A stretch of DNA of 62,416 nt, counting the filler, from Hausera hauseri (lineage: Eukaryota), in the NCBI GenBank assembly GCA_046269625.1. It is 13 parts of 13 records of this genome, joined end to end, with 100 filler letters (N's around TTAATTAATTAA, not from the genome) between each part and the next. Parts side by side here need not be neighbours in the genome. Positions count along the whole stretch, not along the records: positions 29,087 to 34,040 come from JBJURY010380480.1; 12 more parts are not named here. One strand, written 5' to 3'. The notes below the pieces were generated by a model. It saw only the letters and a list, made by a program, of their open reading frames with translations, searched no databases and had not been told where the DNA came from. Made by a program: the position numbers and the translations under genes. This document shows positions 18,767 through 45,599 of the stretch, one piece after another (positions within the stretch are counted from its first letter, which is position 1; the number at the start of each line of letters is the position of its first letter).

Positions 18767-19235
18767 GATTCCCCAATTCGTAACGAAATCAAAGATTCCA
18801 TTAATGGGTTTTCACCGCTGAAGATGTTGAAACCGGACAAAACAGTTAGTAGTAGTACACTATTTAAACAACGGAACATTAATCTCAAATCAACTTCCAG
18901 ACACGATGACAGTCGCGCCACGTTTCTTTCATATCTATCCGATATAAAATAGAATGTGTTATTTTGTAGAATTGGTTGCGTGTCGTGTTAGGAGTCACTT
19001 TTATAATTGTTCAGATTTTTACGATATTAAATTGTTTTCAGTTAAAAAAAATAATAAAATTGTATGGAGATTGATTAAATATAATAATTGATGTTAAAGC
19101 TTTTGAATTTGAATAAAATTTTTTGTCATACATAGTTTCTGACTTCTCTAACGGAATTATTTATACACAAATTTTCTCCTAAATATCAGATTAATAACAC
19201 TATGTATCGTTCCATTTTCTCAAAGAGAAAAGAAA

Positions 19236-19696
19236 TTGTATGTGAGATCTATAAATACATGCATAATTATATTCCCGTCACAAGAATCTTCTGATACTTG
19301 GAGTTTCGCAACCCCAAAGAAAAGTGCAGTGCCGATCGGCAGCTATTATGAAATAAAATCGGATTATGAATTTACCCATACAGAAATTCCAAAAACATCT
19401 TTACAAATGAACGCCACATTAGTACATGGCTATACATGGAACAAGCATATAATTCGAGGAATTGTACCACTGGACAATAGTCAGAAGGTTGTGAATCATC
19501 TTACCTCCACGTGTGGAAATATATTTACGAATGTTGCAGCATCAAATAACATTCTGTCATTCACATTCAAAGATGATGTTGAGCAAGTTATTTTTGATAC
19601 TCAACTAGCTCGGGTATTAGGCTTTACCAAGACTGAATTCACGAACAAGGAAAGAAATAAAGGTGTGTTTCCAATTAAATTGAACAAGGCATTTAA
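19236..19696 (+). pseudogene. Polinton minor capsid (penton/PX)-like fragment, cut by the contig end
   Basis: IIFPSQESS...SDYEFTHTEI resembles LPSNSS..GxWEVALxEI; FDTQLARVLGF...GVFPIKLN resembles the LAxxLGF..PxDLN pattern. Confidence 0.55.
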
Positions 19697-23880: not shown

Positions 23881-24808
23881 CTTCGCTGTGAAGATGTCGA
23901 AATGCCCAGATATAAAGCCGATTGTTCCAGATGAAGAGAAAAAAAACAAATGGAAATTTGTTTCAAAAATGTCGTATTTATTGTACTTATACACAATTGC
24001 CCCGCAAATTTTATTTTACCAAATTTCTTATTTATAAAATGTTATTGTTCCTTCAGAAATCATAAATTATTGCATAATATTCCGGTGACACCCGAGAAAT
24101 GAACATTGACAATAGCGATAATAGCGAAGCTTTCACAAATAAACATCAATAGGAAACTGTGATCAATCTACAATATCACAAAGAGCTGAAGTAGCACAAT
24201 AATTTTTTACGTCATGCTTTATGACATAGTTGAGGAAGTTCTTTAAATATTTCAACAATAAAAATCGGTAATCAAAAAAACTTACCGNNNNNNNNNNNNN
24301 NNNNNNNNNNNNNNNNNNNNNNNNNNNNNNNTTAATTAATTAANNNNNNNNNNNNNNNNNNNNNNNNNNNNNNNNNNNNNNNNNNNNAAACCTCCTTATG
24401 CATAAAAATTATTCCATGAAAATGTACTATATAGGAATAAAATCAATATTTTGCATAAATCAACATGTGCTTTTAAAGCCCAGTAAAGCGGAAATCACTA
24501 AATCTGCAAGCGGAACTGGATAAGAAGTCATGTATTTAGAATCGGAATATGATTTTATATTTTCGACTTCGAGCTCACAAGTCGAATACTTAGCTATTCG
24601 AACTCGAAAACTCGGCCAAGCATGCCTTATTCGAAGAATCTAATGAGTTCATTCGATTCCTCATGGTCGAAAACCTTAAATTTCGCGCCGCCAGCTATTT
24701 AATTTAATTGATGCCTTAAAACAAAAGCGCATTAAAAGCAATCAATATGCGAGACAGTACGTGGTGATATAACTATATTTTTCATTATTTCCAAAACCAC
24801 TTCAACGA

Positions 24809-27800
24809 ATGGTGAGTTTTTTAATTGTGCTCCTCAAACAATTGATTGATTTTAGATGTGAAAACTTTACAGCGAATGTTTGGCTCAAATCTACGAGCCG
24901 GAAAATTGGCACAGTGTTATGAAGAAGTACTTTGGCCATATGTAAAACAGGGTTCAGTATTATATATGCCCTACATGTGAGGTGGTTGCCAAATTAATTA
25001 TGAAGACTTTTACAATGTCCATAAACAGCACCTGATTTCCTTCATCAAGATGAAAAATCAAATATTCAGTACAAATATGCCAATAACGACTTTTGTGCCA
25101 AAGGAAAATAAAAGATGCAGTTCATGTGTATGGCATATGTGCAATGCACAACCCTCAGAATTGACACAATACCATGAGGAGCTATTATGGATACAAATTC
25201 AATAGGGTCCTCTGTTATATATGCCCTCGATGTGAAGCTGTATGTGATGGAAAATACATGCATTTTTACAAAGATCTTATTGCCCATTTGACAGGCTTCA
25301 ATTTAATGCAAAAGAAAGTCTCATTTAATGAGCAGCATCCTGCTTTAGAAGCACAGCCTGCTTTGGCAGCATATCCAGCTGTACATCCTGCTTCTTCAGC
25401 AAAGCCTGATTCAAGACCAAAACGTTTATTAGAGGTAGCAGCAGATGCTCCATCAAAAGGCCAAAGAGAGCGTCCAGTTGATGCAGCTGAACTGAAGAGA
25501 AAAGTTCGCCGATACTTCATAGCAGCAGTAGGGCAGACATCGCTCCATAAATTCCTGCAATATTCAAAGGAGGAGGCAGCAGGAATTCTCAAGGACAACT
25601 TGTTGGAGCTGATAGTTCTTAAGGTGAACTTCAAATTGGAAGCCACCGTCACCAATGTCGAAGGAGAGCTGCCTAGTAGAACCTTAAGGACAAAGAACAG
25701 GCCACAACTGAAATCCTCTAACATTAAGGATTTCATTAGTGAGGAATATGCAAGGCTTATCCGCGAAGCTGAAGAAAGCCAGGACAAGAGGAGCGGTTGG
25801 ACTTTAGCAACAATAAAGGGGTTATTTGTGCATGTGCACAAGTATTCTTCCATGAGAGGTAGCTCCTACATACCGCTTCCTAAATTGATAGTTAAGAAAA
25901 AGGTATGTGTCAATGTCCATAATAATGACAACATTTGTTTCATGTATGCCATTTTATCAAAACTAGTCCAGGATCAACATAATGCTTCCTGAGTTGGCAT
26001 ATGTGACAGAGTGCAGCATACATACGACTTTAGCTGTATTTCATTCCAGCCGAGCCTAGATAAAGTCGTAAAATTTGAAAGAGTGAACAACATCTCAATC
26101 AACATCTTCGGATTGGAGGAGAACAAATTTTATCTATTATATGTGTGCAAGGAGAACTTAAAGGATCATAGGGATCTACTCCATCTAGAAGATGGGGAAA
26201 CGGGACATTTCATCTGGATTAAGAATTTTGAGCGCCTCGTAGGATCCCAAATATCCAAGCATAAATTAAGGCTGGAAATATGCAAGAGATGCTTTACTTA
26301 TTTTAATGAAGACACAGCCGCAGAAAAACTGGAGGAGCACAAGACCTACTACAATACACACTATTTCATCCGAGCAAAATTCCCCAAGGAGGATTATCTG
26401 GAATACAAGGAGTTCGAGAAGATGCAGGAAGTGTCGATTGTCACATATTGTTACTTTGAGTCCATCCTCAGCCCAGTTTACAGCTGCATCCCCAATCTAC
26501 AGCAAAGCAGTACTACAGCATACGAATACTATGAGTTATCATCATACTGCATGTATGTCAAAGGACTGGACAACGAATTCCATCTCTACAAATGTCTAAA
26601 TGCAGCAGTACATTTTATACAAAGTCTGGAACAAAATGTCCCAAACTTGAAGACATGTTGCAGCAGCATAAGGGCTACATGGTGATGCCGCAGCAAAAAA
26701 ATGTGAATGGGGCAAAGCATCAACATACTACTTATGCAAAAAGCCATTCATATGGGACAATTACAAAATCAGGGATCACTGCCATTTTACAGGCATATGC
26801 CGAGGTGCAGTGTGCAACAATGGCAACTTACCCTGCAAGACATGTACATATGTTCCCGTGGTATTCCACAATCTTAGTGAATACGATTGCCACTTCATTG
26901 TTCGAGAATTGTGTAATATTGAGGGGAACATAGATGTGATTTCAAATAGTGAAAAGTACATCACCTTCACGAAGCATGTGGACCGCATCAGACTTCGCTT
27001 CATTGATAGCTTCCGCTTTTTGAGTTCGTCACTGGACAGCCTCGTAAAGAACCTTCCAACTGATGAGCTCAAGGAGAGGAAGATGTTCTTTCCGGATACA
27101 TTTGACCTGGTGAAGCGGAAAGGAGTGTTCTTCTATGACTATATAACGTCATGGAAAGCACTGGATGAAGATGCATTACCGGCCAAGGAAAACTTCTATA
27201 GATATTTGTCATACAGTCATATTAGCGATGTTGACTACGAGCACGCCCAAAGAGTATTGCAGACCTTCCAGTGCAGGACAATAGAGGAATACAGTGATAT
27301 CTATCTCCTCACAGATGTCCTGTTGCTTACTGATGTTTTCGAAAGCTTCGGGGTTGTGACCCTTAAGATCCACAAGTTAGATCCAGCCCATTTCTTTGCA
27401 GCTCCAGGAATGATTTGGACAGCTTCACTATATGCTGCGCTATACCTCATAAGGCTCCAGATCTTGAAGGATTACAATATGGTTCTCATGATTGAGAGAG
27501 GCATCAGGGGCGGAATCTGCCAGGACATTCACAGGCACAGTGTGGCCAACAACAAATACATGGTAGATTATGATCCATCCAAGGAATCCTCATATGTATC
27601 ATACCTGGATGCCAACAATCTGTATGAATGGGCAATGAGCAACATATTGCATTGTGATAACTTTCAATGGGTGGAGCAGCCGCAAGTCCTGGATATTAAA
27701 TGTATGGATCCAAATGGAGATACGGGCTACATACTGGAGGTGGACGTGAAATACCCACATAGCATCCACACAATGCATTAGCAGCTGCCTTTTCTCCCTG

Positions 27801-28730
27801 AGAGCAAGAGGCCGCCAAATGGAAAGCATAAAAGCTGCTATGTCACTTCGAAAAAAAGGAGAGGTATGTAGCCCACTATATAAACCTCCAACAGGCCATA
27901 CAAAATGGATTCCGAGTCATCGGGATTCATCCAACTCTGCAGTTCAACCAGTCCAAATGGCTGAATCCATACATAGATCTTAATACTGAGTTGAGGGCCA
28001 ATGCCAAAAACGAGTTTGAATAGGATCAGTTCAAACTTTACAAAAACTCGGTCTTTGGCAAAACTATGGAGAACATCCGGAACAAAGAAACTCATCGCTA
28101 AGCCCAACTTTCACAGCAGCACATATGCTCAAGACATCACTTGAGTTCAGCAAGCCTATACATGTGGGCATGTCCATATTGGATCTATCCAAGATCTTGA
28201 TGTATGACTTTCATTACAACGTCATGGTCCCCACATTCAATGAGCTCCAGCTAATGTACATGGACACGGACAGTTTCATATACCTGATCCATACAGATTA
28301 TATCTTTGAAAAGTTTGCAAAATTGGCGCAGTATATGGATACCTCGGACTAGCCCAAGGATCATCCAAATTACTTAGTCGTCAACAAGAAGGTCCACGGG
28401 AAGTATAAAGATGAGGCAAATGGGACGATCATCACCCGTTTCGTTGCGGTGAGATCAAAAATATATGCCATCGATGTAAGTGGTCAAGTAAAGAAGCGGG
28501 CTATGGGAGTTCAAAGGGCTACATTAGCTAAAGACATACGCTTTGTAGATTTTGAGAGAGTGTTGCGAGAACAAACTCACATCGTCAGCGAGGTAAAGAG
28601 GATCCAGTCCCGAGAACATCAGATTGCTACGGTTGCGCTGCGCAAGAAAAGCCTTAATTGATTCAATGACAAAAGGCACATTCTTAAAGACGGAATCCAC
28701 ACACTACTTCGTGGACATGTGTCATTGTAA
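24809..28730 (+). pseudogene. polB: Polinton/Maverick protein-primed family B DNA polymerase, copy A1
   Basis: SGWTL..GSSYIPLP, CVNVHNNDNICFMYAI, EndoVII-like DHCHFTG..RGAVCNNGNL, VVFHNL..YDCHFI, FIDSFRFL, RKGVF.YDY, DVLLL.DVFE, YLDANNLY, KNSVFGKTMEN, YMDTDS, RSKIY. Confidence 0.95.
24812..24855 (+). other. 44-nt spliceosomal intron immediately after the polB ATG
   Basis: ATG|GTGAGT...TTTTAG|; removal puts the ATG in frame with the conserved Cys/His domain; same position and length in copy A2. Confidence 0.8.
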
Positions 28731-28885
28731 ATATTATTATTATTCATTATTATTCTTTTGCCTAATAAATGTTGTAAATAAATATCTTGTTGTATTCTTG
28801 ATCAAGAAATGTGGGATATAGGATAAGGCCAAGTAAAAGTAAGTAACTGCTATATAGGATAAGACCAACTAATTTCATAACACAT

Positions 28886-28986
28886 TTATTTAGTAACAAT
28901 ATAACTTTAACATAACGCTAAACACTTTTTATATGCACAATGTGAACCATGTTCACGATAAATACATGTAATGTTCTTTGGTATAG
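28886..28986 (-). pseudogene. C-terminus of the DxE nuclease-like accessory gene, convergent with polB
   Basis: IPKNITCIYREHGSHCAYKKCLALC*SYIVTK*, homologous to about 33740-33835. Confidence 0.8.
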
Positions 28987-29086
28987 NNNNNNNNNNNNNN
29001 NNNNNNNNNNNNNNNNNNNNNNNNNNNNNNTTAATTAATTAANNNNNNNNNNNNNNNNNNNNNNNNNNNNNNNNNNNNNNNNNNNN

Positions 29087-30085
29087 AACTCGGTGCAGTG
29101 TATCCGTGCCACTTGACGAGATATTGTTTATTCGAACCTTTGCCACGTGAACGTAGAATTTCCAGAATGCGATGTACATCGGGTTTCTTGGGCAGTACCT
29201 GCAGTTTCTGTTTGAAGAACTTACCGCGTATTTCCTCACCGTTTTCATCCTCTAAAATGTACATGACAAGTGTTTGTTTTGTGTTAACTGCCGAAATGCG
29301 GAAAACCTTGTCTCTCCAGTTCTGATTGAAATTCTTAATGAACGACGTGGTACTTATTTTTGAAATACGTACATAATAACCGATTTTATACTTGAGACGA
29401 CGTTTAGTTGGTCGTCGTCGGTTTTGATAAAGCCACATGTCCAAATCATCGATTATATCAACCGGCCGTAATCCATTGATGCCACGACGTGTCGAATGAT
29501 TGTAAGCATGAATAATATCCGGCAGTGCATCTATCCAGCGTTTGTTGACTTGCTTCGTAAAGAATTTGTTTAGGCGACCGTGCAATGTTCGATTAAATAG
29601 TTCGACTAGTGCAGCCTTGTATTGGGAAAAAACCAAGTAGTGGTTTACGCCAAACCGTTTCAAGACCGCTGCAACGCGGGCGTTGTAGAATTTCTTACCC
29701 AAATCCGTTTGCAAATGCTTCGGCTGTTGTTGTTGTATCAGTGTCTGGACAGCGTCGGCAATATCTTTACCGGATTTAGATTTCACGGCAATTGCATGTG
29801 CAAAGCGACTAAACACATAAACACATGTCAGCACGTACCTATGCCTATCGTTGATGCTGACGTAGGGAATCATTTCCATTAGATCCATTTGCCATACGTT
29901 ATTTACATTGGTAGCACGGTATGCACAAGTTGGAAACAGCCTTTTTATAGGTTTTTTAGGCTGTATGCTAACTGTTTCCCGAGCCAACATTGGGTCTCTT
30001 GACGAGTCTGTTTGACAGTCTTTGCCAGTTTGTCGACGCCAGTATACCCAATAGGATGACGCGGATTAAACCACATGTCGCCCAT
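29087..30085 (-). pseudogene. int: Polinton retroviral-type (rve) integrase with C-terminal chromodomain, copy 1
   Basis: WQMDLMEM..YVLTCV.VFSRFA, LQTDLGK.FYN, KAALVE.FNRTL, YNHS, VRISK, YLVKWHGY. Confidence 0.95.
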
Positions 30086-30238
30086 CGTTGTCGTCGGTGT
30101 TGTCTATGATGTCTTTTTTGTTTGCATTGCAGCAATGAGAACGAAACGTTAATTAAAGATTCCGTAAACTGGGACAAAATGATGAAAACCATGCACCCGT
30201 ATCGCGGAATCATGATATACTTACCGTCATTGTTTATA

Positions 30239-30562
30239 CTAAACTGCTCCAAAAATCAGTCCCCCCAGTAATGACGTGACAACCGGTAGAATTGCACCCA
30301 GGAATCCGCCATTTTGCTGGCACATGACCTCTCGTTTCAGTCGTTTACTACGAGCGTTGGCAAGGCCAGTGAGTTGTTTTCGATACTTTAGTAAATTCTG
30401 CTTTCCACTACCAATATCAGCGTGACCCACAACGATATTGTACAAAATTTCCATCACGTCGTCCACTAAAAATTGCAGGAATGATCGTAGTATGTTTTGC
30501 ATATGTCTCGCAGATGCCTTGAGCAAAGCAATAAAGTACGGCTGACTACGTTTGAATCGCAT
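30239..30562 (-). CDS. Small conserved Polinton/adintovirus protein ending in QxGG-F plus an amphipathic helix (putative virion protein)
   Basis: 107 aa: EILYNIVVG..LLKYRKQL..QQNGGFLGAILPVVTSLLGGLIFG; lies between ATPase and integrase; second copy at 45755-46053. Confidence 0.75.
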   Translation of the reverse strand: MRFKRSQPYFIALLKASARHMQNILRSFLQFLVDDVMEILYNIVVGHADIGSGKQNLLKYRKQLTGLANARSKRLKREVMCQQNGGFLGAILPVVTSLLGGLIFGAV

Positions 30563-30593
30563 TTTAGACGTATTGATGCTGAGACGTTGTTGT

Positions 30594-30755
30594 TTATAAC
30601 CGTTGCCACTGTAACGGTAACTTGCGTCTAGCTGTTGTTCGAAACACATAATTGATTAATCGCTTGACTGCAGCGGTTTGTTTTGATACACATTTCTTGC
30701 CGGACATCCACTTGGTAGGTATACGTTTAACAATAGTTTTCCGGAAATTTTTCAT
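30594..30755 (-). CDS. Small basic protein (or basic C-terminal tail of the ATPase)
   Basis: MKNFRKTIVKRIPTKWMSGKK..KRLINYV..KLPLQWQ is conserved in copy 2 (about 46090-46265); in frame with the ATPase, with CGA here where copy 2 has TGA. Confidence 0.5.
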   Translation of the reverse strand: MKNFRKTIVKRIPTKWMSGKKCVSKQTAAVKRLINYVFRTTARRKLPLQWQRL

Positions 30756-30769
30756 TTTATTACAATCAT

Positions 30770-31426
30770 GTCGTCGACTTTCAAGTTTTTTATAGACATG
30801 CGCACCTTTCTGAAGGAAAATATCTCGTCGTACACGGATGTCATCGGAATATTGTTGTGTAAAGTCAATAAACAGATATCCATGCGCTTTGTTCGTAGAA
30901 TCATGATATGCATCTATCAAGNNNNNNNNNNGGCTGTGAGGAAATGCTTGTCGTGCAGCATAATCAATCATAGTTTGATCACGTGGATTTTTGAACAAAA
31001 CCAAATAATGTACGTTTAGATTTTTTGTTCGATGCTGTCCGCCTTGATGGAACATGTCTTACGTAATGAAAACAACTGTCACACCACGGTGTCCTACAAT
31101 TGTTGTGAACAGGTTGTTGAAGTCCGATTGTTTCGCGGCTTCCTGAAATAAATCGTCAATAACAATAACGTCATGGTTGAATAATCCCTCAGACCAGTTT
31201 TCATCAAATTAATCAATTACCGTTATGGATTTTAATTTACAAAATTCCCGATGTGTCAAACCGGACTCATCATCATCACTAACACCCTGATGCCAGTAAA
31301 TGTGATTGTACCGCGGTTAATGGAACATGTCACGGTATTTCTGCAATAGTTTTCACACAAATGCGTATTGCCACTTCCACTGGGGCCTACAATCTTCAAA
31401 ATTGCATTATTCTGCAGCTTCATCAT
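30770..31426 (-). pseudogene. A32/FtsK-like genome packaging ATPase, copy 1
   Basis: IVGPSGSG(N)TH Walker A, VIVIDDL Walker B, GHRGVTVVFIT, NVHYLVLFKNPRD, HGYLFID. Confidence 0.93.
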
Positions 31427-31510
31427 AATAATACAACCTTTCCTTACATGCTTTGTTTATAATCGTGTTACACACATATATATAGCTATAGTATAAACAC
31501 TGTTTCTATA

Positions 31511-32072
31511 ATGGTAGCTAATATCAACTATCGCGGACACGTTACCGAGTGTGACATTAACACATTACCTTTTAATCAATGGAAGCCTGAGGAAGTATGT
31601 CCTCAAGTGTCCACCGGATTTTACGTGCATTATATTTTAATCGGGAAAGTGTCGTATTATGGGTTGTCGCAAACCAATCACAGCTGACAGTAACATTAAA
31701 CTACTGCCATTCGGAATTGTCATTGACCAAATCCAATCAATAACGGTAACGACTCAGTCAGACTGCCCATCAATCAATCTGTACAAATTAGCAATGGCCA
31801 CTGCTGAATGTATGTATGAACTCAAACTGTTTCCAGCACTGAGACTGACATCGTTTCGCCCACTTTGTGTCAATGTGTTTAGCAGTGGAAAATTTGTTGT
31901 ACTCGGTATTCGGACAGTGGACTATGAACCGATTAATCAAATTAAAAACCACATAAATGTTTTACTGAATCAAAATAATGTACTTTGCACAAAAACAAAC
32001 TATAAATACCATTCCCATGCTCATTCCGACATTACTGTCATGGAAGACGACAAAAACGATTCTACTCAATGA
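31511..32072 (+). pseudogene. tbp: TATA-box-binding-protein-like gene inside the Polinton contig (one frameshift, one stop)
   Basis: Repeat 1: MVANINYRG...CIIF*SGKCRIMG; repeat 2: IQSITVT...INLYKLA...MYELKLFPALRL...PLCVNVFSSGKFVVLG (TBP YEPExFPGL..IFxSGKxVxxG pattern). Confidence 0.85.
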
Positions 32073-32265
32073 TGGTGGTTGTGAGAATGATGAAAGTTCA
32101 GATTGGTCATGGTTGTTTGGCTACAAAAAAGACAATTCTAATATTAAACTGCTGGAAACGAAAACGGAACCTGTCTAACAATTAGAAAAACCTTATAATG
32201 GCAACTGTCTGGAACTTGCTCAGAAATCAGCAGCGGCAGCAGCAAAACCGACGTTAAAAAGGCAA

Positions 32266-32712
32266 ATGGCAATGATTAAAATACGTAAACGAAAATCAAA
32301 ACCGTCGTGCCAAACACAGACATTTTTACCTAAACGAATTTTTCGCAAGTATGAAGTGCATTTCCTGCAAACGCCCGTACTAATTTCATTGAATGACCCC
32401 GTGTCTCTCTGTGCACACAAGTACAGCTATCGTGCAAAATGGCTTTCGGGTGAAAATTTGGATAAACTTTCTGATGCTTTTCATCAATTAGACGTGAACT
32501 TAAAGTTGAACGAAACGACCGCGCAACAGCAATCTGTCGTTTTATTGGCCCAGAAAACGAAATTGTTTGATTTTATCGGTCGTGAAATGTCTCATGTACC
32601 CGATGATGATTTAAAGTGTCGACTGAATATTGAATTGCAAGGACGCAGGGAAAAGGCCGGTATCAAAAGCCCGATTTGGCATGTAGCTGAAGCACATTTT
32701 AATTATCAATAA
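32266..32712 (+). CDS. Hypothetical Polinton accessory protein, 148 aa, basic NLS-like N-terminus
   Basis: Open ATG ORF in the co-oriented cluster; AATAAA overlaps the stop. Confidence 0.5.
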   Translation: MAMIKIRKRKSKPSCQTQTFLPKRIFRKYEVHFLQTPVLISLNDPVSLCAHKYSYRAKWLSGENLDKLSDAFHQLDVNLKLNETTAQQQSVVLLAQKTKLFDFIGREMSHVPDDDLKCRLNIELQGRREKAGIKSPIWHVAEAHFNYQ

Positions 32713-32799
32713 ATTTTGTTTTACCGTTCTTCTTTCATTAACCCAATTAACGAGTATAAATATACATGTAATTTTAATATAGGCATAAGAATATTGATA

Positions 32800-33264
32800 A
32801 TGAATAATGTGAAGATTATTTTAACAGACGAAAATGCCTTTGTATCGAGAAGTGTTACAGCAAACAGTGCAGGCTACAATGTGTTTCACAATGTCAATAC
32901 GACAATTTCGGACAGCACAATCAAATGCATAATGATTGGGATTCGATTGGCGATTCCACCCGGTTACTACGGCCAACCTTTATCGAAAAGCGGACTGGCA
33001 AAGCTCGGACTGACGGTTGTTGGCGGTGTCATTGATTCAGACTTTCGTGGTGAAATTAAGGTGTTGCTGAAAAACAAATCCAAGGAACCGTATGCTCTTT
33101 CGAAAGGCCGCGCAATCGCACAAATCGTGTTTCTTCGATGTGAAGAGGCGGAATTCAGTGTAATGTCACCGGAACAATGGGGATTGTTTTGTGTCAATGA
33201 AGCAACACAAAATGAATGCAAAGAATTTGGCTTTGGTGATATGAACAAAATCATCTATGTTTAA
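32800..33264 (+). CDS. dut: dUTPase (trimeric type), motifs partly decayed
   Basis: SAGYNV, SKSGLA, GGVIDSDFRGEIKV, IAQIVF; motif 5 degenerate (EFGFG). Confidence 0.93.
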   Translation: MNNVKIILTDENAFVSRSVTANSAGYNVFHNVNTTISDSTIKCIMIGIRLAIPPGYYGQPLSKSGLAKLGLTVVGGVIDSDFRGEIKVLLKNKSKEPYALSKGRAIAQIVFLRCEEAEFSVMSPEQWGLFCVNEATQNECKEFGFGDMNKIIYV

Positions 33265-33344
33265 TGATTGTGATAATAATAGTACTAATAGTTAGTTGTT
33301 TTGTTTGCGTTATAAACAAAAAATGATTTTGTATATGATAAGTA

Positions 33345-33839
33345 ATGGCGACAAAATTTATAGATATTGAAGCTTCCCAAGATGATAATGCTAGGTACAT
33401 AATAAAGGAATTATGAATTATGGACGTCGGTAACATTTTCGAATCGCTTGTGTACATATTCAAGCCCGGTATTGTGTGGAAAAACATGGAGGCAAAAGCG
33501 AAAATTACAAATGGATTTCTCTTTCGACATCGTCATTGACTTCATTGGTATGAAGGCAATTCTATTTTCTGTGCGGCGTATATTATTGGAGAGACTTGTG
33601 ATCGTTTTAACATTGAAAATACAATATTTTACATTAAAGATCAAATTGTCGCACAAAAGTTTACACAACTCCATTCACAGTTTCCCGAGTTGCAAATGAC
33701 GACGTATTGAACAACATCGAACAAGTCGTTGGCGATGGTACCTGACAATATTCAATGTCCGTATCGTGATCATGGACCACATTGTGCTTACAAAAATGTC
33801 TATGGCTTTGTATTGACTATATTTCATGCAAATAAATAA
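33345..33839 (+). pseudogene. DxE RNase H-fold nuclease-like protein with a C-terminal C/H/C motif (Maelstrom/DEDDh-like); absent from the ORF track
   Basis: MATKFIDIEAS..YIIKEL*I..YIFKP..W..KITNGFLFRHRH*LHWYEG..FYIK..CPYRDHGPHCAYK with three in-frame TGA; homologs at 43525-43930 and 28886-28986. Confidence 0.6.
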
Positions 33840-35129
33840 ACGTATTTCTCTGTTTCTTTTTTCTTTCCGTAAATAAGATACGCCGTATTGGTCAGTTAAA
33901 TAATTCAAAAACTATAAATACGGGTAGGAAATAATATTAATCATGATGGAAATAGTTAATCAACTGAAGCAATTGCAATATTTTAATGGATTATCAATTT
34001 CAGACTTGGTACAATGGTGGCAAGTACTTTATAATGAACTNNNNNNNNNNNNNNNNNNNNNNNNNNNNNNNNNNNNNNNNNNNNTTAATTAATTAANNNN
34101 NNNNNNNNNNNNNNNNNNNNNNNNNNNNNNNNNNNNNNNNCGACTTTGTACAATTTAGTTGACCAGAGCCTCATTGTGTCGTCGTTATTGGAAACGAAGG
34201 TGTTGTATAAACAGAACATTAGTCCAACGTTTCAAAAGGAAAATTTGAAACTGTGGATCTTATTAGCTAGTCGCTTGTCGCAACGAATAACCAAAAACAC
34301 GTTTTTATACCATTCGACTAACGATAAATTACAGTTGTAACCTTTTGTCGATTTCCTTTCTGTGCCCGTTATGTTTCTGACGGATTTACCGTTGGATCTT
34401 ATTTCGCTTGATGATTTCCATACGCTCTTCGATGTTTGGGGCTCGCTTTATGTCGATACCGTTATTAAGGTCGACTTGCTCTAGAAAATGTTGGGAAAAT
34501 TTGCCAAATTAAATCATCAAATTTAGAATTGGCATTTAATTTCTCCTGTCGAATTATGCAACGGATTGTAAAGTTTCAAAATCGAATTATAAACATTAAT
34601 AAAGACCAGATGAAATCACGGAAATCATGGAACGATCTTTGTCTTGAAGTGTTGTGTTTGCTGTTCGACAATGTCACGCTGAGTCGAATAAAGATCGATT
34701 GTAAGAATTTGGGACAGTTATTTTTCGATTTGTTACCAAATGACTCTGCGCCGATTACCGAAAGTTCGAAATCATCGAAATTAAGTCGCCGAGAATTCCA
34801 GTGCAATTTGTCATCGGACTGTAAAAGGTAAACTTTTTCTGTTGAAGAAACTTTCAGTGTCATCGTTGTTCGAGTGAAAGTCGCGGATTTTATTCATTTC
34901 TGATTTTATAGGATTTGGGACGAGTTTATAAGTGGCCTTTTGTAAAACTAAATCTGGTTTTGTACAACCTTTACCCAATCGGGTTTCTTGAATTAGACAC
35001 TGACAGAGCGGACAATAACGGTTGCTTTTAATGTACTTACAAATGCACGTTTTACAAAGGGTGTGTAAGCATTACGTAAGCATTGTTGCGTCAATCAAGT
35101 AAACACCACATAAGCAGAAATATAAAATA

Positions 35130-38100
35130 TTTGTTGTCATAATAACAGGTGTAGCAATAGATATAGGAATAGCAGGAAGTGTAGGAGTGAGAAAAAAGGT
35201 TGACGTGCCGATTGGTGAGATGTCGTCGACAAAAAAGGCGGGCTTTAAGTTGGTGATATGCACTGTAAGTTTTTTGCCGTCTTTATAAATAATAGCGTTA
35301 TGTGAATGCAGCTGTACCAGTATATAGGGCCCCAGATACCGAGGTTGGAAACCGCACGGCGTTTGATTCTTTAGCCATACGAATTTTGCCGAATACAAAT
35401 CTTTAGGGAAATATGTTTTGTCTTTATGGACTAACCTGCAGAACGAATCTTTGCTGACCGTAACAAAGTGATTTTGCACCACCCGTATCGTTTCAACTGT
35501 AGGAGTTTCGTCTAGGGTAGTTAGTTTGAATAATTATGTTACAGAAGCTCCGAATAAGGCTTCAGTAGATGAGCATCCTGTAGAAGTAGATGGAGTGTTC
35601 CGCCCTCCAAGCAGAACAAACAGAAGAAGATTCGTCGAACTAGTGTTGGACTCTGCAAGGATTCTTAGTTACGTTTTCAATTTTCGGTGGAAACGTTCTA
35701 GAAGGCCATTCTATTGAGGATGGTAAGGCGTAGTATGTATGTGATGGATTCTCAATCGGTTAACGATGGGTTGGATTCAAACTGTGGACACTGGTCCGTG
35801 ATGATGAAATTAGGTGATCCAAACCTGCTAATCCATTTACAGATGAAAACGTCAGCTATAGTGTCGGTATTTATGCACCGCAGAGGGATGGCTTCTGGCC
35901 ATCGCGAGGAATGGTCCATTATGGTGAGAATGAATTGATGACCGTTGTCTGAAGGAACAGGGCCAACAATGTCGATATGCATGGATTCGAAACGCGATGA
36001 TTAGGGAAAGTGGAACAGTGGTGGCTTTAAATGCTTAGTTGTTTTGTATTTTTGGCAAGCTACACACTCCTTAATCCATTCCTACACATCAGAACGCATT
36101 GACGGCCAAATTACCTGTCGGTGGGGTAAACAGAAAGTGGCTTTAGCACCAGGGTAGTGTAGCAAATGTACACTATTAAAGGCTTGCCTTTGCAACGGTG
36201 GTGCAAGAATTATTAAGGAATTACATGGTTTAAAAGTGCCTAAAGCCACACCGTCAACAATTGTGCAAGACTTGAAAGAATTAAGCATGTCCTGAGGTGG
36301 CTGGTTCTGTTGAAGTTGAGCTTGTGTAAAAATCAGTGAAAAATTCATCGAACTAACCGACCTAGACAAAAAATCGTCAACCAAATTATTAACCCCGTTA
36401 ATGTTTTATGCCGAAGTTAAATGTCGATAAGTATGATATCTGTCGTTCTTGGCGTGTGAAAGGATGTTTCATAGCCATGATGTTAAGTAAGGGCTTGTGA
36501 TCGGTTTGTACAGTAAAATGGCGAACGACAAGTATGTGGGAGAAATGCTTTAAAGCAAGAACGATAGCCAATAATACTCGATGGAACGTTGAGTATCTAG
36601 TTTCAGGGGATGTTAGTTTACGAGAGAAAAATTATAGTGGTTGATTTTCCCCTTTGTAGATTTGGTGAAGCAATGCGCCTGTTGAAGTGGTTGAAGCGTC
36701 TGTAGTAAGGATGAGTTCTGCATCAGGCTTGGGGAAAGCGAGAATGTCGACGGTTGTAATTCCTTCGCGTAGCTTATCAAACTTGTCAACCACTTCAGGT
36801 GTCCACTGGATTGGCTGATTTTTTTGTCGCTTAAGTGTGCGAATGGTGCTGTCAATTTAGAGCAATGTGGTATATATTTATGTACAAAGCGTAGTGTACC
36901 GAGGAAGCTGCGCATTGCGGTGGTCGTACGTGATAACTGGATATTTTTAAGTGCTTCAACCCGGTCTAGTTGAGGAGAGTGGCCGTCTGGTGAAATAACG
37001 TGGCCCAAAAAGTTGATGCGTTTTTTGAAAAAGGCATTTGTTGAAATTAACTTGGAGATTATGGTGGTGAAGGCTTTGAAGTATTGCGCGAAGTTGTTCC
37101 TCGTTTTGTTTGGTCGAAGAGGAAACGATCAGAATATCATCAATTTAAGGGCATACAAACGGTAAATCTGAGAGAATCGAATTAATATGTTGCTGAAAGG
37201 TCTGTTCGGCATTTCGCAAACCGAAAGGCATAAACAGGTACTCGTAATTTTTTCTAGGTCTTTGGATGCCACCGGTATTTGGTGATATGCTTTGGCCAAA
37301 TCGATGGTCGAATAAATGGTAGTTGAATTAAGGCGATGCAAGATATCCTTGATGAGTGGTGAGGGGTACGCATCCATGATAGTTAAGTTGTTCAACTGTC
37401 AATAATCACCGCATGGTCTAAAAATACGGTCCTTTTTTGTACAACGTGTAAAGGTGACGACCAAGGAGATTTAGAACGGCGTACAATGCCGGAGTGTACA
37501 AGTTCAAGAAATTCGGCTCCTACGACTTGTCTACGACGAGGTGACAGTGGTCGTACATTCTGGCATATTGGTCGTGGATTCTGTTTAATTATGTGATGTA
37601 CAGTGCTGTTTGCAGGGGTAAACGAACGATCTTTTTTAAGTACGTATGGACACGATGTTGTAACGAATGGCTGTAAAGTTGTAGGCAACTATGATAGATT
37701 CGGTGACGATGGTGAAACAGCTTGAGTAGTGGCGGATGCGATTTGTAAATTGTTTAGTAATGTGCAGTCAAGTGGTATTTGGTGTAAGATGGTCAAATTG
37801 AAAATGGTGCTTGATGAAGTGATTTCGTTGCGTGAATTAAGTTTGGTGACAGTACCACAATTAACGACGTTGAACCTTGATCAAATATCAATATTATTAT
37901 CTAAAAATTTACGGAGTGAAATATTACGAAAATTTAAAGTAGTTTTTAGTTTTCTCAAAATTGATCTCCGCATCTCGATCGACTGCGCAGTAGTCAAAAT
38001 GCTATTGATATGCTCAGTAATGCTGCCAGTGATGACACTCCTCAGACATCGTTGGCTGCAGTAAACCAATAAATTATAATATGATAGAAAATATGATCGT

Positions 38101-38461
38101 AGAATTGCCGTCTGGACGTTCGCAACTGTGAACATCCTGCGAAAAGGTGAAGGAAAATTTGGTAAGATAAAGGATAGATTAGTCATGCCAGAAATGTGCA
38201 GCGGTTGACCTGAAGCGGTGTATAAGGACTTGATTTTGAAGGGTGAATTTTGTACAGGAATAGATTGTGGTAATAAAGAAATCGCTGCACCTGTATCAAT
38301 GAGGAAGTCAGCGGATTGCGTTGTAGGAGCGGTGATTGCAGCCTTTAGAGTAAAGACAGCAAAAGAGGCGTGGCGGTATTCAGAAAGTGAAGTAGTGCCT
38401 TTGCCAGTGTTTGCCGTGACTTCTGGAGGCATATTTAGTTTTTTTGAAAAGGGGAACTAGG
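35130..38461 (-). mobile_element. pol: Degenerate Ty3/gypsy pol (PR-RT-RH-IN), CHCC-Gag family, with the gag end and slippery site at the contig edge
   Basis: FLIDTGAAIS, SPWSSPLHVV, IDLAKAYHQI, FLGHVIS, HIDIVGP..ITDQ, YLGPY. Confidence 0.92.
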
Positions 38462-39049
38462 NNNNNNNNNNNNNNNNNNNNNNNNNNNNNNNNNNNNNNN
38501 NNNNNTTAATTAATTAANNNNNNNNNNNNNNNNNNNNNNNNNNNNNNNNNNNNNNNNNNNNTTTTAAGTAACGTAAACCGTGATCTTCAAGGGGAAGGGG
38601 GCCAAAGTCGATAAAGTTGTAAGCGTACGTAGATAGGAAATCATGTATGGAATGTCCGATCTGACGTTAGAATTCTGAATATCGGTTCACAAGTCGAATA
38701 TTCGAATAATTTAATACTCAAAAATCGAAAAAATCAGGTGTTCATATGTTGTTTTACTGTGAATTTCAAGATGATGAAGCAAAATTCAAATTTGGAGGGG
38801 CAAAAGAATTTTATGCAATTGATGCATTGAAACAAGTGTACAAATGCAGTATGTTGGCAATACAAGTGCCATATGTTGGCAACAATATGCAGTGCCGAAT
38901 TTACCCCACCATTAAAATTGTTCCTTTTTCCTTACATGCGTGTTTTGTTTTACTTCATCAATTATCAAAGTAAAATAAAAATCAATAAAAATAGTCAGTC
39001 CACTTTGACATGGCTATATATTTCATTATTTCGAAAATCACTTCAAAGA

Positions 39050-42000
39050 ATGGTGAGTTTTTTATTTGTGCTCTTCAAACTAATTGATTTGTTTAGATTT
39101 GCAAACTATACCAGGAATGTTTGGCTCAAATTTACGAGCATGAAAATTGCCATAATACGATGAAGAAATTTTATGCATCTCAACAATAGGACGGAGTATT
39201 ATATGTTCTATATGTGAGGTAGTGTGCCGTACCGGTTAAGAGGAATTTTACAATCAGTATAAACAACATCTGGATTCCTTCACAAAATCGAAGAAAGAAA
39301 TATTCAACAGTAAGACACCAATGACAAAATGTGGCTCAAAAGCAATTCAGATGTGCGGTTACTATGCTTATTGTGCATTTGCAACGCATTATACGTAACA
39401 GTGCCATGAAACGATGCAGCGGTATTATGGACACAAATACAATCGGATCAAATATTATATATATCCAGGATGCGAGACTGTATGCGGTACAGATTACATA
39501 CAGTTCTATTATAATTACAAACATCATTTGAGTGACTTCGCATCAAAGTCCAAGAAGACTATCTTAAATGCGCAACATAATCCTGCTGCATCTGCTTCAC
39601 TGTATGCTGCTGGAGCTGTTGCAGCAGCTGCAAAGCAGATTAGAGAATTGAAACGCGCGGCCGAAAATACGCAGCAGCATCAGGTGCAGCATAAAATTCT
39701 CCGCCAAAAAGCCTACGGCAGCGGCCGGTTGATGCTTCAGCATGAAAAAAGAAAAGTCCGCAGCTATGCTATTGACGCAACGGGTCAAACAACGCTTCAT
39801 GATTTTCTGGTGTACACAAAGGATGAAACAGAGAATTCTCCAGGATAACATGGCGGAGCTCAAAGCACTTAAGGTCAATATGAAACTGGAGGCCACATGC
39901 ATCAATGTTGATGGCGAAGAATCCAAAAAGGCCTTCAAGACCAAAAATAAGCAAATATTGGAAACTACCAATATAGTATAATGGCTGCATGAGGAACACA
40001 GGAAGCCGATACATGAAGCCTAGGAAATCCAGAAGAGTGGATAGACCATGGCAACCTTACAGAGATTGTTTGGGCATGTACACAAGTATTCGCACATGCA
40101 GGGCACTTCCTATATAATACCCCCTGAATGGATTAAGCAGAAACGCATGCATCAATGTCCATAATGATGACATGTGTTTTATGTATTCCATTCTATCAAA
40201 ACTCGTAAAGGATCAACATAATGTTTCACAAGTCATAGTATACCGAAACATCCAGCACAAGTGTAACTTCCAATGTATTAAGTTCCTGTTATCCTTAGAC
40301 GATGTCCAAAAATTTGGACACCAACATTTCCATCAACATCTTTTGATTGGATGATGAGGACAAAGTATATGATGCGGAATTGGAAGATCATAGTGATCTG
40401 CTCCTAGCAGACGATGGAGAAAAGAAGCATTATGTTTGAATAAAGAATTTCGAGCGTCTATTCAGGTCCCAAATTACGAAGCATACAACAAGAATCGAAA
40501 TACTCAAAAGACGTTTGTCCAATTTCGGCGGTGATACCTATGGAGAAGCTTTAAGAGCACAAGGTGTACTGCAACAACAATTATTGTATCAGGATAGAAT
40601 TTCCCAAGGAGGACTACATCGAATTTAAAGAATATGAAAAGAAGATCAAGGTCCCAATAGTCATCTATTGCTACTTTGAAGCCATATTGAGCTTAGTTCA
40701 GGTATGCAACTCCAATCTAGAACACAGCAGCACAACAGCATACCAATTTCACGAACTCTCATATTGAATGTATTCCAAAGGACTGGATAAGGAACCATTT
40801 CTATTCAGAGGCCCCAATGCTACAGTACTAATCATGAAGCGATTGGAAGACATTGCTCATAGGACTGAAGTTATGTTGCAGCAACATAAGGATGCAATGG
40901 GCATGTCGAAGAATTAAGAAGAATGGCGCAAAGCAGCAGCATGTTACTTGTGAGACAAGTCCTTCACCATAGATAATTGGAAAGTCAGGAATCATTGCCA
41001 TTTTACAGGCAAATATCAAAGCAAAGCCTGCAACAATTGTAATCTACATTGCAGAACAGCGACATTTATACCTGTAGTATTCCACAACCTCAGTTGATAT
41101 GATTCCATTTCGTAGCTCGAGAACTGAGAAACATTGAAGGAAACATTGAAGTGATTCTCAACAGTGAAAAAAAACTTTTATAAAATACGTTGGAAAAATC
41201 CGGCTTCGCTTCGTGGACACTTTCCGATTCATGTCCTTTTCACTTGACAGCTTAGTGAAGAATTTTCCTTCAGATCTTAAGGAGACGAAGCTGTTCTTTC
41301 CTAATACGTTTGATCTAGTCAAAAGGAAAGGAATGTTTCCCTATGATTACACCACATCAAGGAAAACAGCTTTGTCGGCCAAGAAAGATTTTTACAATAT
41401 CCTCTCAAACAGTGATATCAGCGATATGGACTATCAAAATGGCCAAAATGTCTGGGAGACATTCAAATGCCGAACATTAGGCGAATACAGCGATATATAT
41501 CTTCATACGGATGTACTGCTGCTGATGGATGTCTTTGAAAGCTTTCGGGATGTGACATTAGCAAGCCACAAGTTGGACCCAGCTCATTTCTTTGCCTCTC
41601 TAGAAATGAGCTGGACAGCAGTTCTGCGATATACCGGTATTAGACTACAGATCATAAAGAATTATGACATGATCATCGTGATCGAGAGAGATGTTAGAGG
41701 CGGAATATGCCAGGTCATTCACCGGTATAGTGAGGCCAGTAACAAGTATATGGTCCAGTATGATCCATCAAAAGCATCTTTATGCATCACGTACCTAGAT
41801 TCCAACAACTTATGTAGATGGGCAATGAGCCTCCCATTGCCTTATGATGACTTTAAATGGGTAAATCACCCGGAAGCCATCCTTGCTTCAGATGTAGATC
41901 CCAATGGAGATATATCCCAATGGGCTACATACTGGAGGTGGATGTTGAATATCCACATAGCATCCATACAAGGCATGAACAGCTGCCTTTCTTACCTGAG

Positions 42001-42980
42001 AGCAAGCAGCCACCTAACGGTAAACATCGAAAGCTGCTCTGCCACCTAGATAATAGGGAGAGGTATATAGTCCAATAAATCACTCTCCAGCAGGCTATTA
42101 GAAATTGACTCCGCATTACGAAGTTTCATGGGCCCTGCAGGTCAGCCAATCCAAGTAGTTGCAGCTATATATAGATTTTAATACGAAGCTGCGGGCTAAT
42201 GTCAAGAACGACTTTGATAATTATCAATTTAAGCTGTATAATAACAGCGTTTTTGACAAGACGATGGAGGACATCTGCAAGAGGATTAACATTGAGTTGG
42301 TCTGAGTGGAAGCGGGCAAAGAAGCTCATTGCCAAGCCCAACTTCCACAGCAGCATCATATATACGGAGGACTTCGTCTGCATTTATATGCTGAAAACAT
42401 CGCTTGAGACAACATGCCAATGTGTGTATGGCGATACTAGACCTGTCAAAGACCATGATGTATCATTTCCACTATGACATTGTCCCCACATTCCAGTCTA
42501 TGAAGCTCATGTATGTGTATACTGATAGCTTTATCTATTATATCCATATAAAGGATATCTTTACAGATTTTGTTCATTTGACACAAGATATGGATACATC
42601 TGACTATCCTAAGGAGCATCCGACCTATTTAATCACCAGCAAGAAGTTCCTTAGGAAATTCAAAGACGAGGTGAATGGGGCAATCGTCTAGCGATTTTTG
42701 GCGCTGCGGAGCAAAATGTATGCCCTTGATGTATGTAGCCAGATCAAAAATAGAGCCAAGGGTGTACAAAGGGCTGCATTGGTAAAGAAGATTGATGTCA
42801 GTGACTATGTGATGTTCTGCATGAGCAGACTCACAACATATCAGAGATGCGAAGGATCCAATCTAGAGCTCAACATCGAGACAGTAAAGCTGCAGAAGAG
42901 CCAGGATTGGATGGATGATAAGAGGCGCATCCTGGACGATGAAATAAGTACTCTACCTCACGGACGTGGCAATTGTAGAT
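39050..42980 (+). pseudogene. polB: Polinton pPolB, copy A2
   Basis: Colinear with copy A1: RKGMFPYDY, DVLLLMDVFE, YLDSNNL, YVYTDS, LRSKMY, RAKGVQ; many lesions. Confidence 0.95.
39053..39096 (+). other. 44-nt intron after the polB ATG
   Basis: ATG|GTGAGT...CTAAT (branch-like)...TTTAG|ATT TGC AAA gives MICKLYQECLAQIYE. Confidence 0.85.
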
Positions 42981-43241
42981 ATGATGTAATTACTTTGTTC
43001 TTGTTATATCTTTGTTGTATTGTTAATAAGTCTTGCTTCAAAATATCTTGTTGCCTTCTTGATCAAGTAATGTGGGATATAGGATAAGGCCAAGTAAAAC
43101 TAATTAAGTACTATATAGGCCAATTAAAACTATACAAGTAAATATATTAATCAATAAATGAATAAATTTGAAATTCAACTTTAAAAAATCAACGCAGTGC
43201 GTCATTTACTTGCATTAATCTGCCATTATTTCAAAATCAAT

Positions 43242-43459
43242 ATGGCTGAAGCATGTGCAATATGTCGGGAAAAAATGAACGGCAATAATGCAAAATGTCA
43301 TGCCCAATATGCAGAACAAAATGTGAATATCGTCATCCGGGATGCAGAAGATCAATGTCTGTGTCGTGGGTAGGGTGTCTAATAAAGACCCTATATGATC
43401 TCTGGCCTGACACTGAAAGTGAATATGACAATGATGAAACCATTGTAATTTTTGTTTAA
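43242..43459 (+). pseudogene. RING-finger remnant (central part deleted) downstream of polB A2
   Basis: MAEACAICREKM /frameshift/ KMSCPICRTK...DTESEYDNDETIVIFV*; segment absent at the same position in copy A1. Confidence 0.55.
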
Positions 43460-43524
43460 TACACGTTTTTTCTGTATTTTTGTCTTGTATATAAAACCAA
43501 CTATTTCATAACACATTTATTTCA

Positions 43525-43930
43525 TAGCAGCATAACTTTGAAATAACGATAAACACTTTATAAGCGCACGTGAACCATGTTCACGATAAATACATGTAAT
43601 GTTTTTTGGAATAGCTACCATTAGCTACATATTCGTAATTTGGAATGTACTGTTAAATATCTTTCGCCCACCAAAATAAACTTTGACGTAGAACGTGGCC
43701 TCATGTATATTACATGTAGCCTCAATGTCTCGCACGAGGCAATTGTTACAAAACTGGGTATTATATTCATTCCACGTCAATTTATAATGATGTTGTGTCA
43801 GATAGGCATTTGTTGCTTGTGCCTTGTTTGAGCAACAATGCATTAGGTGTCTAAATAGTATATAATACGTCTATTATACTAAAATTCACTTACGAAAATA
43901 CATAATATATTGGATTAAACATATTATTCA
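43525..43930 (-). pseudogene. DxE nuclease-like accessory gene, copy with a 43-nt intron (43851-43893)
   Basis: NMFNPIYYVFS|HLMHCCSNKAQATNAYLTQHHYKLTWNE..FC..TFYVK..IPKNITCIYREHG aligns with 33345-33839. Confidence 0.75.
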
Positions 43931-44030: not shown

Positions 44031-44555
44031 ATGAGAGTAAAAGAATAATTCAGTCTTTTGCCAGTTCACTGTAATATCGTTGGTTTTTATAGAAAAGTTC
44101 AATTTTTCACTAATCATACTACGTCTACCGATCTGTAGACCTTTCGAGCGCATATTGACAGATTGAAAACCACATGCCTGAGCGTCGGTTAGTGATTTCA
44201 ATTGAAATTCAATTGGATGTTTGTGATTTAGCACCAATCGATTGTTTAAATGAAAAATATAAACCGGGAAATATTGCCGCTTGTAATTTCGAACGTGAAA
44301 TGTTCCATTAGTGTCTCGGACTAACTGCAAATGACTACATGCAAGAGATTGTCTTAGTAAAGTATAGCATATTCCACTGTTCTCACGTATTGTTATTGGT
44401 CAAAATGTAAATGTGAATTCCGCCAAAGCCACTTCCAAGGCTCCATGGTGTAAATAGAGAGGTTAGTCCAACGCTATGGTAAACCGTTCAGCTGTATTAT
44501 TGTTGTCGTCTTGTTCTTATAATCTGTTACTGTCTAGTACCAAATAAATCCTCAT
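44031..44555 (-). pseudogene. Polinton minor capsid (penton/PX)-like N-terminus
   Basis: MRIYLVLDSN..NTAERFTIALD*PLYLHHGALEVALAEF matches the NTxxxFxxxLxxPLxLxGxWEVALxE pattern; ATG overlaps the integrase stop (TGATG). Confidence 0.75.
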
Positions 44556-45599
44556 CACTTAATCTGAGATGAAAATATCCAACTCGGCGTAATGTATCCG
44601 TGCCACTTGACAAGATATTGTTTATTCGAATCTTTGCTTCGCGAACGTAGAACTTCCTGAATACGATACACATTAGGTTTTTTCCGGTAGTAGTTGCAGT
44701 TTCTATTGGTAAAATTTGCCACGTATTTCGTCACAATTTTCATCTTCTAAAACGTACATAACAGGTTTTTGTTTTGTGTTGATGACTGAAATTTGGTAAA
44801 CCTCATCGCTCCAGTTCTGATTGAAATTCTTAATGAATGGAGTCGTACTCAGCTTTGAAATACGTACATATTCACTGATTTTATACTTGGGGCATTTAAT
44901 TGGTCGTCGTCGTCGTCGTTGTGTTTGGTTTTGGTAAAGCCACATGTCAAAATCATCAATTACATCAACCAGCCGTAATCCATTGATGCCATGATGTATC
45001 AAATAATTGTATGCATGGATAATATCCTATAGTATATTTATCCAGCGTTTATTACCCTGCTTGGTAAAGATTTTGTTCAGTCGACGGCGTAGTGTTTGAT
45101 TAAATCGTTCAACGAATGCAGCCTTGTATTGGGAAAACACCGAGTAGTGGTTTACACCGAACCGTTTCAAGACTGCTGCAACGTGAGCGTTGTAGAATTC
45201 CTTACCCAAATCCGTTTGTACATGTTTTGGCGGTTGTTTTTGTTGTTCAAATAATCTGTGAACAGTGTCGGCAATCTCTTTACCGGATTTAGATTTGACA
45301 GCAATTGCACTTGCAAAACGACTAAACACATCAACACATGTCAGTACATACTGATACCCATCGTTGATGCTGGCGTACGAAACCATTTTTATAAGATCCA
45401 TTTGCCATACATTATTTCCACCGGCAGAACGGTATGTACGAGTTGGACACCGCCTTCTTATCGGTTTGTTTAGGCTATATGCTAACTGTTACCCGAGTCA
45501 ACGTTGGTTCCGGTTCCTAGTTTATTTGACAGTCTTTGCCAGTTTGTCGACGCCAGTATACCCAACGAGATGACGCGGGTCGAACCACACGTCGCCCAT
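44555..45599 (-). pseudogene. int: Polinton rve integrase with chromodomain, copy 2
   Basis: WQMDL, CVDVFSRFA, VQTDLGKEFYN, VERFNQTL, YLVKWHGYITPSWI. Confidence 0.95.

Follow-up and report, generated by a model that had tools for sequence, protein, structure and literature searches.

A TBP gene carried by a Polinton lineage, a decayed copy of it in Hausera hauseri, and a candidate YATAAACR promoter box before most genes of the virion module

Two glutamates in the C-lobe of TBP contact TFIIB, while a basic cluster in the N-lobe binds TFIIA, TAF1, Mot1 and Brf1/2, according to passages in PMC7221094; in the TBPs of large viruses, the same passages place the first of these glutamates in about 40% of the proteins and describe almost all of them as paired with a viral TFIIB. 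In the herpesvirus KSHV, ORF24 binds the Pol II CTD via an N-terminal domain of its own and works with five other viral proteins (passages in PMC7498053). For Polinton-type genomes, the legend of Fig. 5 in Starrett et al. 2021 (PMC8502044) attaches the label 'TBP' to a MELD virus with an adintovirus-like PolB, as a label without analysis in that legend, and the bare presence of TBP in such a genome is therefore already in print; the word 'promoter' does not occur in the main text of the same paper. Within the literature that we covered, which lay outside subscription journals and repeat databases, we found no description of a Polinton TBP family, of its helix loss or of its box. Neither 'TBP' nor 'TATA' appears in the main texts of PMC11161782, PMC11131425, 10.64898/2026.10.13.758929 and 10.64898/2026.06.19.733378, and the term 'polinton' is absent from PMC7221094.

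We analysed a window of 62,416 nucleotides of Hausera hauseri DNA in which 12 identical artificial spacers (44 N, 12 bases, 44 N) separate 13 short contigs, and gene neighbourhoods were read within contigs and never across spacers. The window is rich in retrotransposon and Polinton fragments, and one of its contigs carries a broken TBP gene among Polinton-type genes (Table 1). Translated from its ATG with an X put at both breaks (186 positions), this gene scored 49.1 bits against the Pfam TBP family PF00352 (E 5.1e-13; cut-off 22.9) in two stretches. Its intact portion of 143 aa by itself gave a Pfam TBP E of 1.1e-9, and 35 of the 36 PDB sequence matches at E≤1 were TBPs or TBP fusions; the full-length Pfam score and these PDB matches rule out chance similarity to TBP. 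A sequence-only reading of the locus had taken both TBP repeats to be recognisable, which holds in that there are two Pfam stretches and fails in that the N-terminal repeat is incomplete, the model of an intact relative having no helix in residues 1-83. Its statement that the protein lacks an N-terminal extension was borne out in the window copy, as was the head-to-head arrangement with the packaging ATPase on one contig, with the ATPase starting on the opposite strand 85 nt from the TBP ATG.

Table 1. Features of the contig that carries the TBP gene (positions in the window)
Feature	Position	Strand	Evidence or remark
Contig with part of a decayed Polinton-type element	29087..34040	.	spacers 28987-29086 and 34041-34140; gene matches
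Retroviral-type integrase, chromo-like end, cut by contig end	29087..30103	-	Pfam rve E 5.5e-13
YATAAACR box	30231..30238	-	upstream of integrase, whose 5' end is broken, start codon not fixed
Putative basic core protein ('pVII-like')	30239..30562	-	family in 18 loci; HMM E 4e-27
YATAAACR box	30591..30598	-	36 nt before putative core-protein ATG
Packaging ATPase, broken, 10-N gap 30922-30931	30594..31426	-	HMM matches in four pieces
YATAAACR box	31454..31461	-	35 nt before ATPase ATG
Canonical-type TATA (TATATATA), candidate early promoter (putative function)	31477..31484	+	34 nt before TBP ATG; class pattern in relatives
YATAAACR box	31492..31499	+	19 nt before TBP ATG; exception against 0/45 relatives' TBP genes
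Short-form Polinton TBP gene, broken	31511..32072	+	Pfam/PDB matches; intact relatives 75-77% identical
Broken small gene F2, usual TBP neighbour	32040..32712	+	family in 21 loci; HMM E 1.8e-17; TATAAATA at 32001-32008
dUTPase, CCAAT and TATAAATA upstream	32800..33264	+	Pfam dUTPase E 8.7e-22
YATAAACR box	33311..33318	+	34 nt before next ATG ('EXO')
Broken putative exonuclease-like gene ('EXO')	33345..33836	+	family in 12 loci

In the window copy of TBP, a pseudogene, the reading frame is interrupted by a shift near 31588-31592 and, in frame, by a stop codon at 31638-31640; in line with this decay, the copy also lacks one TFIIB-contact acid of the pair. TBP homology stops near 31975, and the final ~30 codons of the 186-aa frame overlap a TATA-like box and the probable start of the next gene. 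Because the two nearest intact relatives (75 and 77% identity) are 160 and 149 aa long, the stretch beyond ~31975 is probably read-through, and the 186 aa previously given for the repaired protein is probably too long. We found related contigs in three public runs (24,442, 1,062 and 220 contigs; 30932-33900, 80% likeness), which covered all 30 bins with TBP included, and one 292-nt contig of run X1 covers 31371-31624, from the ATPase start into TBP. In that run, 269,958 of 273,686 of the summed contig depth at the stop position and 2,161 of 2,272 at the frameshift position differ from the window (such depth being no measure of copy number); hence, neither break is the family state.

Five gene labels ('pVII-like', 'EXO', 'penton', 'MCP', 'F17') are presumptive, assigned from size, motifs and gene order, and a Pfam scan gave no match for any of the five. 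For the packaging ATPase, a relative matches Pox_A32 with an E of 3.8e-6. Comparison of F2 with Pfam, the PDB and the Atlas gave no assignment, and a likeness to F24 proved unsupported; a role as an OB-fold/SSB or PC4-like protein is a guess. The resemblance between F2 and F13 is weak (probability 48%, E 2e-4), and a small beta-rich protein of the F2/F13 kind lies near TBP in 21 (F2) and 8 (F13) loci.

Elsewhere in the window, a second copy of the same Polinton family at 44031-48020 is 80% identical over 29087-31370 (ATPase to integrase), and both its core-protein gene and its integrase gene are preceded by the box. There is no TBP on that contig, which cannot serve as a TBP-less control because the 5' end of its ATPase is also missing. 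Broken PolB genes of two types lie on the contigs at 24388-28986, 38562-43930, 48121-53848 and 58233-62416; the type at 48121 and 58233 is nearer (47-52%) to the PolB of short-TBP loci than is the other type (33-37%), and the ORFs that start the PolB regions at 25020 and 39258 each have a YATAAACR sequence ~150 nt ahead of them. A separate contig has a 470-aa ORF (12467-13879) with an N-terminal RING finger and no match among the fetched loci. Other fragments are an Ig I-set domain at 4444-4890 (minus strand), probably a host exon and as such suggestive of an animal host, and decayed, gag-pol-like LTR retrotransposon pieces at 5811-11449, 15671-19696, 34141-38461 and 53949-58132.

The gene belongs to a family that recurs with Polinton genes. 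A word search yielded 29 relatives among 39 candidates, and a profile search of 1.84 billion representatives yielded 3,452 matches at E≤0.001; from the best 150 of these, we excluded 8 that looked cellular or were in other ways canonical, two-lobed TBPs, and took 142 as the family. Four intact relatives score 58-63 bits against Pfam TBP. By scanning metagenomes for TBP relatives, we obtained 61 loci. Polinton core ORFs are present in 32 of them; among the 21 loci of at least 4 kb, 19 have one. Clustering the 60 loci with a TBP ORF at 70% identity gave 31 clusters, 20 of them with a Polinton core gene. TBP occurs together with PolB, ATPase, integrase and putative capsid genes in L008, L029, L047 and L051, and in L067, a locus recovered via its integrase, the ATPase likewise has a TBP for a neighbour. 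The relatives further encode an adenain-type protease (Peptidase_C5 matches) and a packaging ATPase (Pox_A32 matches), and conserved ORFs of 400-430 aa and 340-510 aa, with no Pfam match, occupy the places expected for the genes of jelly-roll major and minor capsid proteins. Scans of a viral contig collection returned one distant match with the TBP alignment and none with the ATPase, 'MCP' and PolB alignments, and an ATPase match was not found in a phage collection. Other cargo in TBP-bearing loci includes a ubiquitin-conjugating enzyme, a dual-specificity phosphatase, an LRR protein, KilA-N proteins and a RING protein (coordinates listed: L029:225-719, L009:4008-4316, L031:1918-3327, L059:606-1739 and L040:1710-2168); the LRR cargo stands behind a YATAAACR box in all five cases.

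We built a quick tree with IQ-TREE from 90 rows, 65 of them from the family and the rest TBPs of cellular (19), archaeal (1) and divergent, unlabelled (5) types, with animal TBP/TRF rows left out. In it, the 65 family rows fell on one side of a long branch with an SH-aLRT of 100, and 24 mostly short-form rows including the window copy grouped inside the family clade (97). The 61 loci, this separate clade and the core genes in 20 of 31 clusters rule out a one-off insertion of a host TBP, an outcome that would have undone the sequence-only reading. Overall, the TBP gene is a regular part of one Polinton lineage, and the window holds a decayed copy of it. The family is under purifying selection: of 28 pairs, which share rows and are not independent, 27 allowed a dN/dS to be calculated, and the ratio stayed under 0.5 in all of these but one (1.14), with a median of 0.165. 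The head-to-head layout with the ATPase was rejected as a general functional unit, since among 24 loci with both genes the two lie on the same strand in 21 and are divergent in 2.

The family comprises two forms, a long one of 165-170 aa and a short one of 144-160 aa, to which the window copy belongs. The long-form model (pLDDT 95.7) is a complete saddle with four helices and a TMq of 0.77-0.88 to solved TBPs; the second helix of its N-lobe is acidic. The short-form model (pLDDT 94.8; TMq 0.61-0.73 to TBPs) has helices only at 84-90 and 133-147 and none in the N-lobe, so that two complete repeats with two helices each are present in the long form and missing in the short form, the closest relative of the window copy included. 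Foldseek searches with the models of two intact relatives gave best E values of 1.7e-8 and 2.2e-12, both to TBPs, and with these predicted TBP saddles the concern that the protein might lack a TBP fold fell away.

Mapping 113 full-length representatives (of 142) onto the fungal TBP P0334, in yeast numbering checked by the expected residues, we found the intercalating phenylalanines retained at F116 (108), F190 (112) and F207 (111); at the F99 offset, where the loop register is uncertain, only 4 of the 113 have a Phe. The expectation of four intercalating phenylalanines thus holds for three, with the F99 equivalent lost. The N-lobe Phe pair of TBP kinks the 3' end of the TATA box. Five replacements are near-invariant among the 113 representatives, namely V122R (108), T124M (112), N159S/T (113), V161T/S (111) and L205N (111), and all five positions face the DNA. 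The pair of TFIIB-contact glutamates, singled out beforehand for checking, is kept in the family at E186 (102/113) and E188 (111/113), the window copy being short of one. The N-lobe basic patch is lost, with positions 133, 141 and 145 mostly gapped or non-basic and a lysine at 138 in 26 of 113. A Pfam scan of 46 and 105 proteins from incomplete loci, which a divergent TFIIB could escape, returned no TFIIB-type gene.

We found a strand-specific box upstream of many genes in these elements. Scanning the sense strand within 120 nt upstream of start codons for YATAAAC[AG], we counted it before ATPase (18/20), 'pVII' (14/16), integrase (11/13), 'penton' (10/15), 'MCP' (9/9), 'F17' (6/6), 'EXO' (7/9), PLA2-like (7/9), LRR (5/5) and protease (2/5) genes. 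These ten families, grouped into a box class after the pattern was seen, together have the box in 89 of 107 upstream regions and lack it in 18; in each of them, the antisense count was 0 and shuffles gave less than 0.5. It is absent before TBP (0/45), F8 (0/7), F14 (0/6) and ZnF (0/8) genes and rare before F13 (1/8), F2 (3/19), F7 (2/10) and PolB (1/3). An unbiased 7-mer count on the box-class families returned as top words ATAAACA (78 sense to 1 antisense), TATAAAC (60:0) and CATAAAC (37:0). Sites often lie at -34 to -38, often near -36, and position 7 is a fixed C; at position 1, long-form loci favour C (24:13) and short-form loci T (42:10). Long and short TBPs go with one and the same box, so specificity would not depend on the loss of helices. 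The box is not explained as a by-product of conserved protein sequence, since 41 of the 89 sites lie outside coding sequence and the 48 within upstream ORFs occupy all three frames. At least one box site is present in 19 of 20 clusters, and the window contig has 6 against 1.4 expected, a number reached by 3 of 300 shuffles. In the genes of the other class (TBP, F8, F13, F14), we found a canonical TATA in 41 of 66, and an initiator-like word TCA[CT]T follows 23 of these 41 TATAs as against 1 of the 89 boxes.

As a comparison, we counted the box in five Polintons without TBP (L063, L064, L065, L069 and L070), where it precedes 1 of 17 homologous genes. These controls were found regardless of TBP, are all incomplete, have distant ATPases and belong to other virion-module classes, and box and TBP may therefore share only ancestry. 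Left out of this count were L071 and L072, which are very distant and carry the ATPase only, and L066-L068, which are of the same class; L066 and L068 have the box and are too short to show whether TBP is present, and no element of this class emerged as TBP-less. L069, with PolB, integrase, ATPase, protease and capsid-like genes, has canonical TATAs and a box before its ATPase, whereas the TBP-bearing L067 lacks a box there. Whole-locus box counts overlap between the groups (8 against 4.3 expected in the TBP-bearing L008, 8 against 4.5 in the control L065). Within the TBP-less L063:1-9034, which encodes a protease-integrase fusion, the start codon of almost all listed ORFs is immediately preceded by TAA (TAAATG). 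This arrangement resembles the poxvirus late motif, and L063 may depend on the polymerase of a helper virus.

From the gene family, its Polinton context and purifying selection, the predicted fold and residues, and the strand and spacing of the box, we infer the functional steps as follows. Promoters made up of a canonical TATA and an initiator would let host TFIID transcribe TBP and the other early genes. The element TBP, its DNA face apparently rewired by the loss of one Phe and by the five family-specific positions, would prefer a TATA that has a C at position 7 and starts with T or C, and its kept glutamate pair could engage host TFIIB. Loss of the N-lobe basic patch may free it from TFIIA, TAF1, Mot1 and Brf, a release to which the loss of both N-lobe helices in the short form would add; such freedom fits the absence of an initiator in the putative late promoters. 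Together with host TFIIB and Pol II, the element TBP would then turn on the virion module, the ATPase and the integrase. We therefore propose, with a probability of roughly 0.65, that the intact protein is an element-encoded late-gene TBP that binds YATAAAC[AG] and recruits host TFIIB and Pol II. The earlier suggestion of a viral basal factor working with host TFIIB agrees with the kept glutamate pair, the absence of a TFIIB Pfam match in the scanned ORFs and the upstream box, and does not extend to the window copy, which is a pseudogene; its alternative of a TBP mimic gives way to a true TBP homologue. The window's own TBP gene, which has both a canonical TATA (at -34) and a box (at -19), counts against the late-gene reading.

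Other explanations were weighed against the same observations. The element TBP might instead be a general, regulation-proof booster of all element promoters, with host TBP reading the box as a weak TATA variant that delays the virion genes. The TATA-like distance of the box and its presence before the ATPase of one TBP-less element speak for such a division of labour, as does a known variant of the adenovirus TATA: TATAAAC would, by the usual numbering, be the C(-25) variant, which with wild-type TBP reportedly needs a Hoogsteen pair and would be a poorer but usable host site. A crystal structure of plant TBP in its wild-type form with this C(-25) variant exists (entry title of PDB 1qn3), so host TBP can bind TATAAAC. 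Nevertheless, we consider a general booster unlikely, as the residues substituted on the DNA face are near-invariant in the family and differ from those of cellular TBP, which indicates a changed target, and as the box is very strict, with its fixed C7, and comes without an initiator.

A more distant possibility is that the protein has no tie to the box and acts as a decoy, sequestering host TFIIB or blocking promoters and so dampening host or early transcription. A TFIIB-contact loop among the best-kept parts of the protein and a short form devoid of N-lobe helices would suit a decoy, but conservation of the three phenylalanines and of the family-specific DNA face is no less strict than that of the glutamates, and a strand- and distance-specific box would be left unexplained, which makes this quite improbable. 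We give similarly little credence to a box read by another element protein, either the F2/F13 neighbour or a C2H2 zinc-finger protein, and travelling with TBP by shared descent only. The lineage-confounded controls would allow it, and candidates exist in the weakly alike F2 and F13 near TBP and in the C2H2 protein encoded by long-form elements; however, F2 was not seen in long-form loci nor C2H2 in short-form loci, while both kinds of loci have TBP and the box, and the box resembles a TATA element in sequence and position.

The late-gene reading bears on the timing of Polinton gene expression and on a possible autonomous infection cycle. A TBP matched to an 8-bp site is directly testable with one small protein, and the box offers a sequence rule for finding late genes. 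If true, the reading would provide a natural TBP with changed DNA specificity and a way to test how little of a TBP, here one devoid of N-lobe helices, suffices for Pol II initiation. At about even odds, we envisage a one-protein early-to-late switch in a widespread Polinton lineage, in which a natural altered-specificity TBP reads YATAAACR, ignores TFIID-type regulation and plugs into host TFIIB, with the short form (~145 aa, without N-lobe helices) as the smallest two-lobed saddle seen here, and thus an orthogonal promoter code in animal nuclei. The window copy itself is a fossil, and the value lies in the TBP family.

Set against known systems, the Polinton TBP shares with cellular TBP (PF00352; eukaryotic and archaeal) the saddle fold, three intercalating phenylalanines, N69 and the C-lobe glutamate pair. 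It differs in its length of 144-170 aa, the missing N-terminal extension, the lost F99 equivalent, the five replaced DNA-face positions, the lost N-lobe basic patch, the absence of both N-lobe helices in the short form and its separate, long-branched clade. Like the Nucleocytoviricota TBPs described in passages of PMC7221094, it lacks the eukaryotic N-lobe signature, and there are fold matches in BFVD; compared with the TBP-TFIIB pair of large dsDNA viruses in those passages, it retains the glutamates (102 and 111 of 113) and has no TFIIB match in the ORFs scanned. The elements themselves are of the Polinton/Maverick (adintovirus) type, with a retroviral-type integrase on the TBP-bearing contig, protein-primed PolB on other contigs of the window, and PolB, integrase and TBP joined in L008, L029, L047 and L051. 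The likeness to the ORF24/TATT system of beta- and gamma-herpesviruses lies in a virus-encoded TBP-type protein, in the use of host Pol II and in structural genes preceded by a variant TATA (passages in PMC7498053), the Polinton role being the putative one. Unlike ORF24 as described there, the Polinton protein is a bare TBP core that starts at the first TBP strand, with no Pol II CTD-binding N-terminal domain; it has clear sequence homology to TBP, keeps the TFIIB contacts and goes with the box YATAAACR rather than TATT. On this comparison, the Polinton TBP is a divergent member of the TBP superfamily that would work like the herpesvirus late system but outside it.
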